Assembly (NCBI RefSeq): GCF_003790525.1
Contig: NZ_CP033635.1
Strand: one strand, 5' to 3'
Length of the DNA: 64,000 nucleotides
DNA from: Escherichia coli
GTDB taxonomy: Bacteria > Pseudomonadota > Gammaproteobacteria > Enterobacterales > Enterobacteriaceae
Part shown: positions 8,661 to 44,859 of the stretch, piece after piece
Position numbering within the stretch: the first letter of the stretch is position 1
Layout of the letters: each line of letters begins with the position of its first letter
Program-made: the position numbers and the translations under genes
The notes under the pieces: generated by a model
What the model saw: only the letters and a program-made list of their open reading frames with translations
Database searches by the model: none
What the model was told of the DNA's origin: nothing

Positions 8661-9333
8661 ATCGTGAACCTCCCCCAGGCTCTGCGGGAACCCCACTTCC
8701 GAACCGCTGCGCACGGGCACAGAAAGAGCGTGGCGACGGGGTTTGCGTGTCATACGCGCACCTCGCATTCGCCCCCTTGTTGTCCTTTTCGCATCGGTTA
8801 ATACGGTGAAGAGGGGATCTCAATTACTGCATAAATATGATGAGCAGGCTGCTCATCCAGAAAGCTTCCAGCGGATTTCCAACTTATCGGGAAAGCTGAT
8901 ACAGGTCAAATGGCAAGCTTATTGGTACAGAAATGTGCTTTAGCGCAAAATTCTTTATTAATTGTCTGAAATTAAAGTGGATTTTCTATTTAAGGCTAAA
9001 AGGGCGTCGTTAGAGAAACAGTCAATTCCTGACTGTCATAAAGGCGTGTTAACCCTTATCCTGCCTTGAACTGACGAGAAAACCAGCATTTTATACTGCC
9101 TTAATTGGTAATAACGTTTCATGCTACTGTTTTTGCCTAAAATCCATAAGGAGATAAAAAAATCTGACACAAGATAAGCAAAAGTGATTTATGTGATTGT
9201 GCATGAAATTTCGGTAATTTTGATTGATTATGCAGTTGATAAAAGCAGGCCGGGACGATTGATCCAGGTCATCGCCGAATTGAGCTAAAAATGGCAGGCT
9301 TTGGCCTCTTTTCAAGGCGCGGTCTATCAGATT
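8661..9333. promoter_or_regulatory. AT-rich divergent gltB / yhcC control region
   Basis: About 670 bp non-coding, AT-rich; known in E. coli to carry the gltBD promoter with Lrp/IHF/CRP sites; individual sites not mapped here. Confidence 0.45.
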
Positions 9334-39178: not shown

Positions 39179-40508
39179 TCGTAAATATTTCGGTACCGAT
39201 GGGATTCGTGGTCGTGTAGGGGATGCGCCGATCACACCTGATTTTGTGCTTAAGCTGGGTTGGGCAGCGGGTAAAGTGCTGGCGCGCCACGGCTCCCGTA
39301 AGATCATTATTGGTAAAGACACGCGTATTTCTGGCTATATGCTGGAGTCAGCACTGGAAGCGGGTCTGGCGGCTGCCGGTCTTTCCGCACTCTTCACTGG
39401 CCCGATGCCAACACCGGCCGTGGCTTATCTGACGCGTACCTTCCGCGCAGAGGCCGGAATTGTGATATCTGCATCGCATAACCCGTTCTACGATAATGGC
39501 ATTAAATTTTTCTCTATCGACGGCACCAAACTACCGGATGCAGTTGAAGAAGCCATCGAAGCGGAAATGGAAAAAGAGATCAGCTGTGTTGATTCGGCAG
39601 AACTGGGTAAAGCCAGCCGTATCGTTGATGCTGCGGGTCGCTATATCGAGTTTTGCAAAGCCACGTTCCCGAACGAACTTAGCCTCAGTGAACTGAAGAT
39701 TGTGGTGGATTGTGCAAACGGTGCGACTTACCACATCGCGCCGAACGTGCTGCGTGAACTGGGGGCGAACGTTATCGCTATCGGTTGTGAGCCGAACGGT
39801 GTAAATATCAATGCCGAAGTGGGGGCTACCGACGTTCGCGCGCTCCAGGCTCGTGTGCTGGCTGAAAAAGCGGATCTCGGTATTGCCTTCGACGGCGACG
39901 GCGATCGCGTGATTATGGTTGACCATGAAGGCAATAAAGTCGATGGCGATCAGATCATGTATATCATCGCGCGTGAAGGTCTTCGTCAGGGCCAGCTGCG
40001 TGGTGGCGCTGTGGGTACATTGATGAGCAACATGGGGCTTGAACTGGCGCTGAAACAGTTAGGAATTCCATTTGCGCGCGCGAAAGTGGGTGACCGCTAC
40101 GTACTGGAAAAAATGCAGGAGAAAGGCTGGCGTATCGGTGCAGAGAACTCCGGTCATGTGATCCTGCTGGATAAAACCACTACCGGTGACGGCATCGTTG
40201 CTGGCTTGCAGGTGCTGGCGGCGATGGCACGTAACCATATGAGCCTGCACGACCTTTGCAGCGGCATGAAAATGTTCCCGCAAATCCTGGTAAACGTGCG
40301 TTACACCGCAGGTAGCGGCGATCCGCTGGAGCATGAATCAGTCAAAGCTGTGACCGCAGAAGTTGAAGCGGCGCTGGGTAGCCGTGGACGTGTGCTGTTG
40401 CGTAAATCCGGCACCGAACCGTTAATTCGCGTGATGGTGGAAGGCGAAGACGAAGCGCAGGTGACTGAATTTGCACACCGCATCGCCGATGCAGTAAAAG
40501 CCGTTTAA
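39171..40508 (+). CDS. glmM: phosphoglucosamine mutase
   Basis: 445-aa ORF with active-site motif SASHNP; overlaps the folP end by 8 nt. Confidence 0.97.
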
Positions 40509-40526
40509 AGCGTTAGATAACTGGCT

Positions 40527-40553
40527 AAAAAGGCGGCGATTGTCGCCTTTTTT
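40527..40553 (+). terminator. intrinsic terminator after glmM
   Basis: aggcggc-gatt-gtcgcct hairpin followed by TTTTTT. Confidence 0.7.
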
Positions 40554-40735
40554 CTCAGCGAACACATCGGTTTTGCTGTTTTTTTCCGCAGTTGATACAA
40601 TGCGATAAAATTGCCCTTGCGAAGGTCATTCGCTTTGGTTAGTATTCACACCCGCTTCAGTGGGAAAGATTAAAAACTCCCGCTTTATTGGTTGAAGCAT
40701 TGGTACGCGGCAACTCCGCAAGGAACAGGTTGATT

Positions 40736-41068
40736 ATGTACGAAGCTCTTTTAGTAGTTTTCCTTATTGTGGCAATTGGCCTTGTTGGTCTGATCATGCT
40801 GCAGCAAGGTAAAGGCGCTGATATGGGAGCCTCCTTCGGAGCAGGCGCTTCCGCTACGCTGTTTGGTTCAAGTGGTTCTGGTAACTTCATGACCCGCATG
40901 ACGGCGCTGCTGGCAACGTTATTCTTCATCATCAGTCTGGTGCTGGGTAACATCAATAGCAATAAAACCAATAAAGGTAGCGAATGGGAAAACCTGAGTG
41001 CGCCGGCGAAAACCGAACAAACTCAGTCAGCTGCTCCGGCTAAGCCGACCAGCGATATCCCGAACTAA
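40736..41068 (+). CDS. secG: preprotein translocase subunit SecG
   Basis: ORF contains MYEALLVVFLIVAIGLVGLIMLQQGKGADMGASFG..., 110 aa. Confidence 0.95.
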   Translation: MYEALLVVFLIVAIGLVGLIMLQQGKGADMGASFGAGASATLFGSSGSGNFMTRMTALLATLFFIISLVLGNINSNKTNKGSEWENLSAPAKTEQTQSAAPAKPTSDIPN

Positions 41069-41082
41069 AAAGTAGTATCCGT

Positions 41083-41169
41083 GCCGAGGTGGTGGAATTG
41101 GTAGACACGCTACCTTGAGGTGGTAGTGCCCAATAGGGCTTACGGGTTCAAGTCCCGTCCTCGGTACCA
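41083..41169 (+). tRNA. leuU: tRNA-Leu (anticodon GAG), 87 nt with encoded CCA
   Basis: GCCGAGGTGGTGGAATTGGTAGACACGCTACCTTGAGGTGGTAGTG...GGTTCAAGTCCCGTCCTCGGTACCA; long variable arm, cloverleaf foldable by eye. Confidence 0.93.
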
Positions 41170-41182
41170 AATTCCAGAAAAG

Positions 41183-41210
41183 AGACGCTGAAAAGCGTCT
41201 TTTTTCGTTT
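41183..41210 (+). terminator. intrinsic terminator after leuU
   Basis: agacgct-gaa-agcgtct hairpin followed by TTTTTCGTTTT. Confidence 0.75.
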
Positions 41211-41627
41211 TGGTCCTGGTCTGAGGAATGGTTGTCAGGTATCTGTATCTCGTCCAGTTGCTTTACTCGTAGCTGGTACCTTGAAACGATGGTGCCGGTA
41301 CGCCTTAGTTATAAACTTTTCCCTTCTGCTGACATAATTGGCACTTTATTGTGTCAACTCCAGTTCCGGTACGAATACGGATATGTTTACTTCTCGATAA
41401 ACCATCCTGCTCCTGTCAGTATAACTACTGATGGCTACGTTCTGCGTAATGTTTAGAGACGCATTGATAATGTTATTTAATTACTGAGAACGCAATGGTC
41501 GCATCATTTAAAAAGAAAAAACTAACAGTGTTTCGGTCTGATATGGATCAGAGTTGAAAAACATGTCTGATATAAAATTGAACATTGTTGATAATTGTTT
41601 ATATTGGTTGTGAACCTGGATTTCTGG

Positions 41628-43253
41628 ATGACAGTATTCAACAAATTTGCTAGAAGTTTTAAATCTCATTGGTTGTTGTATCTTTGTGTTATTGTTTTTG
41701 GTATTACGAACTTAGTCGCCTCTTCCGGAGCGCATATGGTTCAGCGATTGCTGTTCTTCGTCCTGACCATCCTGGTTGTTAAACGTATATCATCCCTTCC
41801 GCTTCGCCTGCTTGTTGCCGCACCATTTGTGTTACTGACTGCGGCAGACATGAGTATTAGCCTCTATTCATGGTGTACCTTTGGTACAACTTTCAATGAT
41901 GGATTTGCGATTAGTGTGCTGCAGAGTGATCCGGATGAAGTTGTGAAAATGTTGGGGATGTATATCCCTTATCTATGTGCTTTTGCTTTTTTATCCCTTC
42001 TTTTTTTGGCAGTAATAATAAAATATGATGTTTCCTTGCCGACAAAAAAAGTGACAGGAATATTATTGCTGATTGTCATTTCGGGCAGTTTATTTTCAGC
42101 TTGTCAATTTGCTTATAAAGATGCAAAAAATAAAAAAGCGTTCAGTCCATATATACTAGCGTCTCGATTTGCTACCTATACACCGTTTTTCAATCTCAAT
42201 TATTTTGCTTTAGCAGCGAAAGAGCATCAAAGATTACTCTCAATTGCAAACACGGTGCCGTATTTTCAATTATCAGTCAGGGATACAGGTATTGATACCT
42301 ACGTGTTGATTGTGGGGGAGTCTGTACGTGTCGACAATATGTCTTTGTATGGATACACACGCTCTACGACACCGCAAGTCGAAGCACAAAGAAAACAGAT
42401 CAAACTGTTTAATCAAGCAATAAGCGGTGCACCTTACACTGCGCTGTCGGTTCCCCTTTCTTTAACTGCTGATTCTGTTTTGAGTCATGACATTCATAAT
42501 TACCCGGACAACATTATTAATATGGCTAATCAAGCAGGATTTCAGACTTTCTGGCTAAGCTCGCAATCCGCTTTTCGGCAGAATGGTACAGCAGTTACCA
42601 GTATCGCCATGCGCGCCATGGAAACAGTCTATGTCAGAGGATTTGATGAATTGTTGTTGCCGCATTTATCGCAAGCGTTACAGCAAAAGACGCAGCAAAA
42701 GAAACTGATTGTTCTTCATTTAAATGGAAGCCATGAACCGGCTTGTAGCGCCTATCCGCAATCCAGCGCCGTGTTTCAACCGCAGGACGATCAGGATGCC
42801 TGCTATGACAACTCCATTCATTACACAGATAGTTTGCTAGGTCAGGTTTTTGAATTATTAAAAGATCGCCGCGCCTCGGTCATGTATTTTGCCGACCACG
42901 GCCTGGAACGCGACCCTACGAAGAAGAACGTCTATTTTCATGGAGGCAGGGAGGCCAGCCAGCAGGCATATCATGTCCCGATGTTTATCTGGTATAGCCC
43001 CGTTCTTGGGGATGGCGTGGATCGCACAACGGAAAACGATATCTTTTCCACTGCGTACAATAATTACCTTATTAATGCGTGGATGGGGGTAACAAAGCCG
43101 GAACAGCCGCAAACGCTGGAGGAAGTGATTGCACACTATAAAGGAGACTCACGGGTTGTAGATGCAAACCATGATGTTTTCGATTTTGTGATGCTAAGAA
43201 AGGAGTTTACTGAGGATAAGCAAGGTAACCCCACCCCTGAAGGGCAGGGTTGA
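41628..43253 (+). CDS. yhbX: putative phosphoethanolamine transferase (sulfatase/EptA-like inner membrane protein) YhbX
   Basis: ORF contains MTVFNKFARSFKSHWLLYLCVIVFGITNLVASSG...; membrane N-terminus then sulfatase-like domain; AT-rich 5' half. Confidence 0.85.
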   Translation: MTVFNKFARSFKSHWLLYLCVIVFGITNLVASSGAHMVQRLLFFVLTILVVKRISSLPLRLLVAAPFVLLTAADMSISLYSWCTFGTTFNDGFAISVLQSDPDEVVKMLGMYIPYLCAFAFLSLLFLAVIIKYDVSLPTKKVTGILLLIVISGSLFSACQFAYKDAKNKKAFSPYILASRFATYTPFFNLNYFALAAKEHQRLLSIANTVPYFQLSVRDTGIDTYVLIVGESVRVDNMSLYGYTRSTTPQVEAQRKQIKLFNQAISGAPYTALSVPLSLTADSVLSHDIHNYPDNIINMANQAGFQTFWLSSQSAFRQNGTAVTSIAMRAMETVYVRGFDELLLPHLSQALQQKTQQKKLIVLHLNGSHEPACSAYPQSSAVFQPQDDQDACYDNSIHYTDSLLGQVFELLKDRRASVMYFADHGLERDPTKKNVYFHGGREASQQAYHVPMFIWYSPVLGDGVDRTTENDIFSTAYNNYLINAWMGVTKPEQPQTLEEVIAHYKGDSRVVDANHDVFDFVMLRKEFTEDKQGNPTPEGQG

Positions 43254-43260
43254 TGTCGAA

Positions 43261-44619
<1,359 letters not shown>

Positions 44620-44655
44620 TTAATTAACTGATGATGAGCCTGGATTTCCGCTCTC

Positions 44656-44693
44656 ACTGAATTTTTATGCAAAATAAATGAGTTTTCATTTAA
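44656..44693. promoter_or_regulatory. candidate pair of ARG boxes (ArgR operators) upstream of argG
   Basis: actGAATttttATgCAaa and aATGAgttttCATTt resemble the TGAAT-N4-ATTCA ARG-box palindrome, 50 to 90 bp upstream of the argG start. Confidence 0.45.
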
Positions 44694-44829
44694 TCATCTT
44701 TTATCGGAGACAGGAAGAGTTTAGTGTGTTTTTTGTAAAATAATGCGCTTAAGGGAGAGCAGGAGAAGGCAAAAGTATTCAACAAATGAAAGTGAACTGG
44801 ATATTCATTCACGTGATTAGCAATAAACG

Positions 44830-44859
44830 TTGACAAAATGTGGCATGGATCACTATAAT
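44830..44859 (+). promoter_or_regulatory. consensus-perfect sigma70 promoter (TTGACA, 18-nt spacer, TATAAT) upstream of metY
   Basis: cgTTGACAaaatgtggcatggatcacTATAATgcc read directly on the plus strand. Confidence 0.55.

Follow-up and report, generated by a model that had tools for sequence, protein, structure and literature searches.

The yhbX locus of Escherichia coli: a probable acquired, H-NS-silenced cassette that replaced an XRE/HTH gene between leuU and argG

The segment at 41212-43259 of the analysed stretch of DNA (64 kb in length, hereafter the window) is probably a horizontally acquired monocistronic cassette that replaced an XRE/HTH gene and carries an intact transferase gene, yhbX, which would be silenced by H-NS and overlap with argG at the transcript level. 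The initial annotation, made from the raw sequence, described AT-rich DNA at this position and read it as an anciently acquired gene that is likely silenced by H-NS. The observation is confirmed and the interpretation is supported; a xenogeneic silenced gene was correctly flagged in this way. Two refinements are made here: the cassette appears to have displaced an older resident gene, rather than to have occupied an empty gap, and the tRNA gene is a neighbour of the cassette and not an integration target. The AT-richness of yhbX and its occupancy by H-NS are already in public data, and the only new detail is that the leuU-argG slot is dimorphic in E. coli. In general, the locus is an ordinary, well-behaved example of a known phenomenon.

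Organization of the locus and edges of the cassette

The features of the locus, in window coordinates, are as follows.

41083-41169, plus strand: leuU, the gene for tRNA-Leu(GAG) (ARAGORN; Rfam tRNA model, 52.8 bits; RefSeq annotation)
41177-41206, both strands: intrinsic terminator of leuU, with a 13-pair stem on the plus strand and a 7-pair stem on the minus strand (terminator scan)
41212-43259, plus strand: variable cassette of 2048 bp, made up of yhbX and the spacer that precedes it (blastn alignment of the window to NZ_CP027342.1)
41212-41627, plus strand: AT-rich region upstream of yhbX, 416 bp; the rest of the 458-bp spacer lies outside the cassette (composition and homology edge)
41628-43253, plus strand: yhbX coding sequence, 541 aa, ATG start (RefSeq annotation)
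43261-44604, minus strand: argG, the conserved right neighbour (sequence comparison)

The source strain of the window is E. coli SMS-3-5. The mechanically called open reading frame over yhbX is longer than the annotated one and begins at a TTG start at 41595.

When the window is aligned with NZ_CP027342.1, which carries the XRE/HTH allele, blastn homology is found solely at 40600-41211 and 43260-44700. On the left side, the homology stops 5 nt past the leuU terminator, at 41211, and the yhbX allele, the XRE/HTH allele and a relic found in the genome E7-1N7 all diverge directly after ...TTTTTTCGTTTT. leuU itself is conserved; it borders the cassette on the left and lies outside the variable DNA. 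On the right side, yhbX and argG are convergent, with 7 bp between their stop codons (43254-43260); the coordinates agree with the initial placement of yhbX between a tRNA gene and a convergent argG with a 7-bp gap. The C-terminus of ArgG differs between the alleles in its last two codons, reading ...ENKGQ* in the yhbX allele and ...ENKVK* in the XRE/HTH allele, which places the right junction of the cassette inside the end of argG. The final residue of ArgG is K in Salmonella, Citrobacter and Enterobacter (NKGK or NKSK, and NDKK in Enterobacter). The variable DNA is bounded by the ends of conserved functional elements: on the left by the leuU terminator, and on the right by the stop region of argG. 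This suggests homologous recombination in the flanks as the simplest route of exchange.

Two alleles of the slot in E. coli

The initial annotation proposed that presence and absence of yhbX be surveyed at the leuU-argG junction. Among 5426 complete E. coli genomes, the yhbX cassette is carried by 5178 (~95%), whereas in 237 (~4%) it is exchanged as a block for an alternative cassette of 1168 bp with the gene for a 317-aa XRE/HTH-type regulator. In 5166 of the 5178 carriers, one aligned place accounts for at least 80% of the yhbX cassette. IS1 and IS1203 insertions and truncated products occur in some genomes. A search for close homologues of yhbX was dominated by E. coli sequences at least 99% identical, and the short clusters of lower identity in this search proved to be fragments that bear no taxon name. 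The XRE/HTH alleles are nearly uniform (229 of 237 are at least 99% identical to each other), and their near-identity could reflect either retention restricted to a clade or later re-import. In the one genome E7-1N7, the slot holds a 273-bp relic with a decayed HTH fragment, and all three alleles have identical edges. No E. coli record showed 80-90% identity at argG; all were at 95-100%.

A role of either cassette in a defence system was considered and rejected: PADLOC returned nothing for YhbX and weak HTH-only matches for the XRE protein, and PHROGs gave only generic matches to HTH regulators. The 317-aa XRE-family protein is conserved, and its homologues are widespread in Gamma- and Betaproteobacteria, with listed identities of 52-58%.

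Distribution outside E. coli and origin of the cassette

In S. enterica, Citrobacter koseri and Enterobacter, the stretch between argG and leuU-secG holds an orthologue of the HTH gene (68-73% amino acid identity). Occupation of the slot by this regulator gene in these three taxa implies that yhbX is the newcomer. In S. enterica diarizonae, Citrobacter amalonaticus and Citrobacter sp. MGH106, leuU and argG are only 180-212 bp apart and the junction lacks the cassette; other cargo is found 3' of leuU in Intestinirhabdus alba (a fimbrial cluster) and C. amalonaticus ku-bf3 (an MFS transporter gene). A scan for exact leuU in a collection of 100,044 species yielded 16 loci, none of them from an Escherichia species.

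The closest relatives of YhbX outside E. coli are 42-48% identical (Buttiauxella, Mixta and Microvirgula), and in a search of 1.84 billion cluster representatives, nothing outside the E. coli cluster exceeded 50% identity. The relatives in Buttiauxella and Mixta, the two that were checked, sit at non-syntenic loci, and the gene of Buttiauxella is also AT-rich compared to its own flanks. In addition, a 64%-identical paralogue of YhbX is found in an E. coli entry that is classed as a plasmid, and some E. coli genomes have, at another position, an island with an integrase that includes a pseudogene related to yhbX (73% nucleotide identity over part of its length). The slot content and short gaps in other genera, and the low identity of the relatives, bear out the initial claim of an acquired accessory gene. 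That the acquisition is ancient agrees with the presence of the cassette in 5178 of 5426 genomes and with its dS of 0.054-0.085 among four lineages, which is similar in magnitude to the dS of argG.

Based on these results, the cassette would have entered the Escherichia lineage before the split of the E. coli phylogroups; the time of entry is loosely bounded, as the comparison is without E. albertii, E. fergusonii and the cryptic clades. It would have replaced the older, likewise AT-rich XRE/HTH gene at the argG-leuU slot, probably without site-specific recombination machinery, and homologous recombination in the conserved flanks may be what swaps the two cassettes and keeps both in the population.

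Base composition and the upstream region

The GC content of yhbX is 43.1%, the lowest among the 59 genes of the window, compared to a mean of 52.4% (sd 2.8, z = -3.4) for the 58 other annotated coding sequences. Its GC3 (42.3%, z = -2.5) and its CAI (0.354, with the highly expressed genes of the window as reference) are also the lowest of the 59. The deviation is uneven along the gene: the 5' half has 39.2% GC and a GC3 of 35.8%, and the 3' half has 47.0% and 48.7%. With 38.9% GC in the 458-bp spacer between leuU and yhbX, the description of the spacer and the 5' half as very AT-rich holds, and the initial counts of G+C in two 60-nt lines were exact (16/60 for 41641-41700 and 18/60 for 42001-42060). 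When the 64 kb were scanned in 50-bp steps, 15 of the 25 most AT-rich 300-bp windows fell in 41251-42400. The initial annotation had named, as the outcome that would speak against it, a universal yhbX with normal GC over the whole gene; instead, yhbX is found in 5178 of 5426 genomes and has 43.1% GC against 52.4%.

An artefact of membrane-protein composition was also considered for the AT-richness of yhbX and is ruled out. If the YhbX protein were encoded with the average codon usage of the window, a GC content of 50.1% would be expected, against the 43.1% observed, whereas seven control genes, five of which encode membrane proteins, deviate by no more than 3.4 points from the expectation based on composition. 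Amino acid composition accounts for approximately 2 of the 9 missing GC points, and the remainder is codon choice. yhbX has, in other words, the AT excess beyond protein composition that marks an H-NS-silenced xenogeneic gene.

The upstream region (41212-41627) is 96.5-98.7% identical among four E. coli lineages. It contains candidate sigma-70 hexamers at 41567-41605 (9 of 12 matches); sigma-70-like sites are not enriched over shuffled sequences (9 versus 7.0 ± 2.7), and the idea of a promoter island was rejected for this lack of enrichment. A perfect palindrome, CTGATATGGATCAG, is present at 41538-41551 and may be an FNR/CRP-type site; matches to the FNR consensus across the window are not above chance (38 versus 29 ± 5). 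No Rfam family was found in the spacer (E <= 0.1), the only matches of the scan being the two tRNAs and the rimP leader. A 74-aa open reading frame at 41232-41456 has no Pfam match, tblastn of four HTH orthologues against the region gave only noise (E >= 0.3) and no gene remnant, and no nucleotide similarity was found between the spacer and the upstream regions of yhbX homologues.

The YhbX protein

The catalytic domain of YhbX matches the Pfam sulfatase family PF00884 (2.3e-56) over aa 224-466 (~42297-43025). It is preceded by five hydrophobic segments within aa 16-162 (~41673-42113), at approximately 16-34, 41-59, 61-79, 113-131 and 144-162 according to Kyte-Doolittle hydropathy only. Matches in the PDB include the catalytic domains of EptC, EptA and MCR-1, the best solved relatives being E. 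coli EptC (5zzu) and Neisseria EptA (5fgn) at ~1e-23. In the alignment to full-length NmEptA, which spans aa 41-460 of YhbX, T271 corresponds to the Thr nucleophile T280; E231 corresponds to E240 and D423-H424 to D452-H453, the Zn ligands; and the histidines of the LHxxGSH and HxPM motifs are kept, aligned with H378, H383 and H465. The PF00884 domain, approximately five predicted N-terminal TM helices, and the catalytic Thr with the Zn-binding Glu, Asp and His are the characteristics of the EptA-like superfamily, and the initial description of YhbX as an EptA-like phosphoethanolamine transferase is borne out by the domain match, the similarity to EptC and EptA and the conserved Thr, Zn and His residues.

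On the other hand, YhbX scores below all NCBIfam cut-offs: 155.7 bits for P_eth_NH2_trans (cut-off 500), 142.7 for the CptA subfamily (404), 123.1 for EptA (561), 105 for EptB (493) and at most 71 for the MCR families (at least 1075). It is not a specific orthologue of EptA, EptB, CptA/EptC or an MCR family. Its own subfamily, with 122 cluster representatives at E <= 1e-30, is separate, small and patchily distributed. In four divergent E. coli lineages, the open reading frame is intact over 541 codons, and dN/dS values of 0.04-0.24 show purifying selection. [quoted passage not shown] The protein is probably an inner-membrane enzyme with five predicted TM segments and a periplasmic domain of sulfatase fold, which at the family level belongs to the EptA/EptB/EptC/OpgE phosphoethanolamine-transferase superfamily. 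The intact active site, together with purifying selection, suggests a functional transferase that presumably acts on an envelope acceptor.

Occupancy by H-NS and StpA

In MG1655, H-NS ChIP-chip peaks have been reported at 3318000-3320779 (aerobic) and 3318628-3320878 (anaerobic) (PMC3688515 Table S3, Myers et al. 2013), and these peaks cover yhbX, at 3318010-3319635 in U00096.2 coordinates. The peaks were mapped to the window via NC_000913.3 minus 1978 bp and the identical geometry of the locus, which gives the following feature.

40385-43263, no strand: window equivalent of the K-12 H-NS region (aerobic peak 40484-43263, anaerobic peak 40385-42635)

Enrichment begins at the boundary of argG and yhbX, extends over the cassette and ends shortly after secG, so that leuU-secG is covered as well; the data are from K-12, which is 98% identical here, and not from SMS-3-5, and the resolution of ChIP-chip is hundreds of base pairs. 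Occupancy of yhbX by H-NS in vivo is thus seen in published K-12 peaks, as the initial annotation expected when it pointed to H-NS ChIP data as a check. An FNR peak at yhbX was called only in the Δhns ΔstpA strain (peak average 0.42 in the wild type and 0.70 in the mutant; PMC3688515 Table S7), and yhbX is among the genes whose expression changes with O2 solely in this mutant (PMC3688515 Table S11); together with the H-NS peaks, these data support the initial view of a likely H-NS locus. The supplements of PMC4288151 and PMC11335895 hold no entry for derepression of yhbX in an hns mutant relative to the wild type, and yhbX is also absent from the supplements of PMC4720273, in which evidence on H-NS was sought. 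Because it is AT-rich, the cassette would be coated by H-NS and StpA, as shown in K-12, with occlusion of at least one transcription factor, FNR, and this coating may keep yhbX essentially silent under laboratory conditions.

Probable loss of the argG terminator

In the alternative allele, and in Salmonella and Citrobacter, a canonical GC stem followed by U7 is kept after argG. In the yhbX allele, the terminator scan found no terminator-like site between yhbX and argG, and the sole structure downstream of argG is a hairpin.

43227-43251, minus strand: 11-pair hairpin within the last yhbX codons (RNA fold of 43180-43262, z -1.5 versus shuffles)

As this hairpin has no proper U-tract, it would be at best a weak terminator. 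The replacement by the cassette probably removed the canonical argG terminator, and antisense read-through from argG into yhbX is expected from this loss. The transcripts of the two convergent genes would then overlap as in an excludon, and yhbX would be repressed further by this overlap. This is partly shown: argG-yhbX is listed as an excludon candidate by ExcludonFinder on the basis of RNA-seq coverage (PMC12288877), and removal of the terminator would explain the reported overlap of transcripts.

Alternative explanations

The position of the cassette directly downstream of a tRNA gene invites the reading that an integrase inserted an islet at the 3' end of leuU and that the integrase gene and att repeats were later lost. 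Unrelated DNA 3' of leuU in Intestinirhabdus alba and C. amalonaticus ku-bf3, as well as the yhbX-related pseudogene in an integrase-bearing island, would fit such an event. However, no integrase gene accompanies yhbX, the sole gene between leuU and argG, and the 3'-terminal 25 nt of leuU have no second copy at up to 3 mismatches within the 64-kb window. The initial annotation had likewise seen neither an integrase nor a repeat, and the partial repeat near 43250 that it proposed to look for did not turn up in this search. The repeat finder gave only chance-level pairs; one of them, a short family of two copies in which the leuU anticodon arm is matched at 41277-41296 (20 nt, 75%), was treated as chance. 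Moreover, the left edge is outside the tRNA, 42 nt past it and beyond the terminator, the right edge falls in the stop region of argG, and three alleles with exactly shared edges are what is expected for exchange through the flanks. An origin by tRNA-targeted integration is accordingly quite unlikely.

It is very unlikely that yhbX is instead ancestral in enterobacteria, was lost in Salmonella and Citrobacter, and owes its AT-richness to a hydrophobic domain and weak expression. Its most AT-rich part is indeed the 5' half, which encodes the membrane domain, and almost every E. coli genome has the gene, which is under purifying selection. This reading is already largely refuted by the composition-based expectation (50.1%, not 43.1%), to which the other membrane proteins of the window conform; by the different syntenic gene in the slot of three other genera and 4% of E. 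coli; and by the lack of any relative above 50% identity outside the E. coli cluster, the closest ones checked being non-syntenic. Least probable of all, and hardly credible, is a decaying, functionless remnant that binds H-NS incidentally through its AT content and is kept by linkage to essential neighbours. The missing phenotype and substrate (PMC4013655), the insertions and truncated products in some genomes and the lowest CAI in the window would suit a remnant, yet the 541-codon frame is intact in four divergent lineages at a dN/dS of 0.04-0.24, all catalytic residues are kept, and almost all carriers (5166 of 5178) align over at least 80% of the cassette in one place.

Significance

yhbX (b3173) is an annotated y-gene of unknown function in the best-studied bacterium. 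The value of these results is mostly one of tidying up. The additions are modest: the dimorphism of the slot with an older regulator shared across genera, the lost argG terminator, and an intact, selectively maintained enzyme. Being intact and under selection, YhbX is a reasonable target when phosphoethanolamine modifications of lipid A, core or glucan, or cryptic determinants of polymyxin resistance, are catalogued. A further proposal, which we regard as unlikely, is that YhbX acts as a fifth envelope phosphoethanolamine transferase, with a function of its own, that is expressed only on relief of H-NS (for example in anaerobiosis, via the unmasked FNR site) and is reciprocally coupled to arginine biosynthesis through the argG overlap. 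If it were true, the yhbX/XRE dimorphism would mark lineages with different envelope chemistry or tolerance to polymyxin and cationic peptides. In engineering, the yhbX locus serves widely as a neutral site for insertions (PMC12421378; bioRxiv 10.1101/2023.02.03.527047), and its users should note that the site lies in H-NS-coated chromatin with no terminator on the argG side.

Comparison with known systems

The cassette resembles other targets of xenogeneic silencing by H-NS and StpA in E. coli and Salmonella in its AT-richness, its restricted distribution and the kb-scale ChIP block over acquired DNA, and here, too, a transcription-factor site is unmasked in Δhns ΔstpA. It differs in being a single 2-kb gene and not a multi-gene island, and no counter-silencer is known for it. 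Similarly, YhbX has the architecture of EptA/PmrC, EptB, EptC/CptA, OpgE and MCR, in which a periplasmic PF00884 domain comes after five membrane segments at the N-terminus, and it keeps T271, E231, D423, H424 and the His residues of the active site, whereas its scores are far below the curated NCBIfam cut-offs for the EptA, EptB, CptA and MCR families. As in excludons, yhbX and argG are convergent, 7 bp apart and have no canonical terminator between them, but their overlap seems to be a by-product of the replacement that deleted the ancestral argG terminator. Finally, the slot is like the replacement islets found between core genes in that two mutually exclusive cassettes and a relic share identical edges and lack mobility genes, and other taxa likewise have other cargo 3' of leuU. 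It differs from them in its very low diversity, with essentially two alleles in E. coli, and in that one of these alleles is an old syntenic resident common to other genera.

Two alleles of the leuU-argG interval

Around yhbX, 4.1 kb of the window match E. coli SMS-3-5 (NC_010498.1, reverse strand) with 100% identity, and the order of genes in the RefSeq annotation is folP-glmM-secG-leuU-yhbX-argG(convergent)-metY-rimP-nusA.

Features of the leuU-argG interval in the window
41083-41169, leuU, tRNA-Leu(GAG) (ARAGORN)
41177-41206, bidirectional leuU terminator
41628-43253, yhbX, 541 codons, ATG start (annotated)
43261-44604, minus strand, argG, convergent to yhbX

The leuU-yhbX spacer is 458 bp, and because argG occupies the minus strand, the stop codons of yhbX and argG are 7 bp apart. 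The locus was matched in 5425 of 5426 complete E. coli genomes, in only 5175 over at least 80% of its length, and the genomes below this coverage led to the discovery of a second allele. NZ_CP027342.1 has, from leuU to argG, a 1168-bp segment of 37% GC with a 317-aa helix-turn-helix (HTH, XRE-type) gene encoded on the same strand as argG. The two alleles cease to be homologous at 41211, 5 nt past the leuU terminator, and match again from 43260, the base just ahead of the argG stop codon; therefore, the variable cassette in the window is 41212-43259 (2048 bp). The presence/absence check at this junction showed that yhbX is not universal: among the 5426 genomes, 5178 carry the yhbX cassette, 237 the alternative, and approximately 10 neither. 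One of these last, E7-1N7, has a 273-bp spacer with a left edge identical to that of the other alleles, which contains a decayed HTH-gene fragment (tblastn E about 2e-5) and the argG terminator of the HTH allele. IS1 or IS1203 interrupts a few yhbX copies. In 24 E. coli genomes, the sole match to the yhbX cassette of the window is only 60-80% identical.

A tRNA-targeted integrative island was considered for this position and rejected. No integrase gene is present at leuU-yhbX-argG, a search of the 64 kb for a repeat of the leuU 3' end (last 25 nt, up to 3 mismatches) found none, and the left edge of the cassette lies beyond the terminator of the tRNA gene. The initial annotation, which had seen neither integrase nor repeat, is borne out on both points.

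The older occupant of the slot

Searching one genome per species for exact copies of leuU gave 16 loci. S. enterica subsp. diarizonae, C. amalonaticus S646 and Citrobacter sp. MGH106 have convergent argG only 180-212 bp beyond leuU; each of these spacers contains the leuU terminator and a canonical argG terminator, with filler that in two of them looks REP-like by eye. The S. enterica diarizonae and C. amalonaticus spacers (comparison loci L017 5333-5545 and L014 1383-1607; positions within each locus, here and below) hold imperfect palindromes between the two terminators, e.g., GCCTGATAAGCG...CGCCTTATTCGGCCTAC; the palindromes in these "empty" spacers look REP/BIME-like. In Edwardsiella, Hafnia, Tenebrionibacter and one MAG (L005, L009, L013, L015, L016, L018), rimP-nusA directly follows leuU, with no argG match between them; therefore, argG appears to be an inverted insertion into the secG-leuU/metY-rimP-nusA-infB region of Enterobacteriaceae.

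The family of the HTH protein is large and well conserved, and the closest relatives of this protein outside E. coli are 68-73% identical. In S. enterica, C. koseri and Enterobacter, the genes of these relatives, all AT-rich (GC3 30-36%), sit in the very slot between argG and leuU-secG and point the same way, and their pairwise identities roughly track the ArgG and SecG phylogeny. Therefore, the slot has long belonged to the XRE-type gene, which some lineages have lost, and yhbX is a later arrival that took its place; no HTH-gene remnant was found inside the yhbX cassette. The XRE/HTH protein has 317-319 aa with a large C-terminal region (L001 2145-3098, from NZ_CP027342.1; L030, L032, L034 5001-5960). 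Its listed homologues (52-58% identity, mostly 312-326 aa) are found in Pseudomonas, Serratia, Photorhabdus, Acinetobacter, Halomonas, Massilia and others; the family is widespread and conserved.

The leuU neighborhood is a recurrent insertion hotspot. Downstream of leuU, Intestinirhabdus alba carries an apparent chaperone-usher fimbrial cluster and other genes (L019 1396-10804), and C. amalonaticus ku-bf3 an MFS-type transporter gene (L012 168-2145); in Shimwellia pseudoproteus, approximately 3.9 kb is inserted between glmM and secG (L007 6763-10666).

Identity, relatives and age of yhbX

The only Pfam match in YhbX is the sulfatase domain (2.3e-56). The NCBIfam models for EptA, EptB, CptA and all MCR families give significant matches, yet each curated cut-off is missed by a wide margin. 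Among solved structures, the best matches are E. coli EptC (5zzu, 6e-24) and N. meningitidis EptA (5fgn, 2e-23); E231, T271, D423-H424 and the active-site histidines align with the Zn ligands and Thr nucleophile of EptA, and five hydrophobic segments span residues 16-162. Thus, YhbX is predicted to be a bona fide phosphoethanolamine-transferase superfamily member and the orthologue of none characterized, in agreement with its initial description as EptA-like. YhbX has no established function (PMC4013655).

Among 1.84 billion cluster representatives scanned in full with HMMER, only 122 reached E <= 1e-30. The best ones outside the E. coli cluster, in Buttiauxella, Mixta gaviniae, Pectobacterium and the betaproteobacterium Microvirgula, are 42-48% identical, and a Proteus relative 34%. 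The Buttiauxella gene, AT-rich against its flanks (42.6% vs 51.6% GC), lies between an elaA/elaB-like region and kdp, and that of Mixta in yet another context. Within E. coli, a paralogue with 64% protein identity is carried by CP057032.1 (L021 438-2099), a 62-kb non-mobilizable record filed as a plasmid, and a truncated related pseudogene (NZ_OZ369161.1, L027 4833-5474; 73% nucleotide identity over part) is found in some genomes beside glnH-dps, in a chromosomal island that also encodes a tyrosine integrase. The yhbX family is therefore patchy and mobile. Among SMS-3-5, K-12, O157:H7 and DSM 111506, dS is 0.054-0.085 for yhbX and 0.046-0.129 for argG, dN/dS of yhbX is 0.04-0.24, and the ORF is intact in all four; yhbX is old within E. 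coli. The proposed ancient acquisition of an accessory gene is upheld by dS near that of argG, the older XRE-type resident and the patchy relatives.

Base composition

The AT-richness first noted in yhbX and its spacer is confirmed and makes the region a strong local outlier, and the two 60-nt counts reported then (16 and 18 G+C) were reproduced exactly. Over its whole length, yhbX has 43.1% GC, compared to 52.4 ± 2.8% in the other 58 CDS of the window (z -3.4); its GC and CAI are the lowest among the 59 genes, and its GC3 is 42.3%, with the 5' half more extreme (35.8% vs 48.7% in the 3' half). The leuU-yhbX spacer has 38.9% GC. When the protein was recoded with the mean codon usage of the window, the predicted GC was 50.1% (48.8% for the 5' half), so only about 2 of the 9 missing GC points come from amino-acid composition and the rest from codon choice. 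Seven control genes, including five membrane proteins, fell within 3.4 points of their predictions. A mere membrane-domain signature is thus ruled out.

Only two other stretches of the window are as AT-rich, both short intergenic promoter regions: 8851-9150 (gltB-yhcC, 34% GC) and 44551-44850 (argG-metY, 37% GC; perfect TTGACA-18-TATAAT at 44830-44859). Both are ordinary; set beside them, the yhbX tract is the only one in the window that is long and mostly coding. Downstream of gltD, positions 1-2536 hold a SWIM zinc-finger gene and a DUF5691 gene with unusually high GC (59.1%) and low CAI (0.41); this stretch looks like another strain-variable insertion.

H-NS and FNR at yhbX

H-NS ChIP-chip peaks of K-12 cover 3318000-3320779 (aerobic) and 3318628-3320878 (anaerobic) (Myers et al. 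2013, PMC3688515 Table S3). The gene labels of that study (leuU near 3320105, metY near 3316312) and NC_000913.3 give an offset of -1978 bp, so yhbX lies at 3318010-3319635 in its coordinates. The aerobic peak extends from the argG/yhbX boundary over the whole cassette to just past secG (window ~40484-43263). Therefore, H-NS binding at yhbX is shown for K-12, which is 98% identical to the window here. As for the silencing initially deemed likely, the binding part is confirmed by these peaks and silencing itself is strongly implied; no direct expression ratio was found in the published supplements searched. An FNR peak at yhbX was called only in the Δhns ΔstpA strain (mean 0.42 in wild type, 0.70 in the mutant, significant; PMC3688515 Table S7), and an O2-dependent change in yhbX expression was likewise seen only in that strain (PMC3688515 Table S11). 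Located 77 bp ahead of the start codon of yhbX, a perfect 14-bp palindrome, CTGATATGGATCAG (41538-41551), is a candidate FNR/CRP-type site to which this peak might correspond; sites of this type do not occur above chance across the window.

The argG terminus

No terminator-like site was found between yhbX and argG. The only hairpin downstream of argG (43227-43251) is U-poor, lies inside the last yhbX codons and has z -1.5, whereas the argG terminator of the XRE allele is a canonical stem followed by U7 (z -2.7). ArgG ends in ...NKGQ* in the yhbX allele vs ...NKVK* in the XRE allele, and K-ending forms occur in Salmonella, C. koseri and Enterobacter. By these comparisons, the replacement removed the ancestral argG terminator and altered the last two argG codons. 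Read-through from argG would then run antisense over yhbX up to the bidirectional leuU terminator. The argG-yhbX pair is among the convergent pairs with overlapping RNA-seq coverage reported by ExcludonFinder (PMC12288877).

Comparison with known systems

Public annotation and data already contain yhbX, its assignment to a family and its occupancy by H-NS. We found no description of the cassette dimorphism, of the XRE gene as the earlier occupant or of the lost argG terminator; these are small additions. Taken as a whole, the initial interpretation is supported, and the locus is not a tRNA-integrated island; it behaves as an ordinary xenogeneic accessory gene coated by H-NS, in a replacement hotspot delimited by its flanks.
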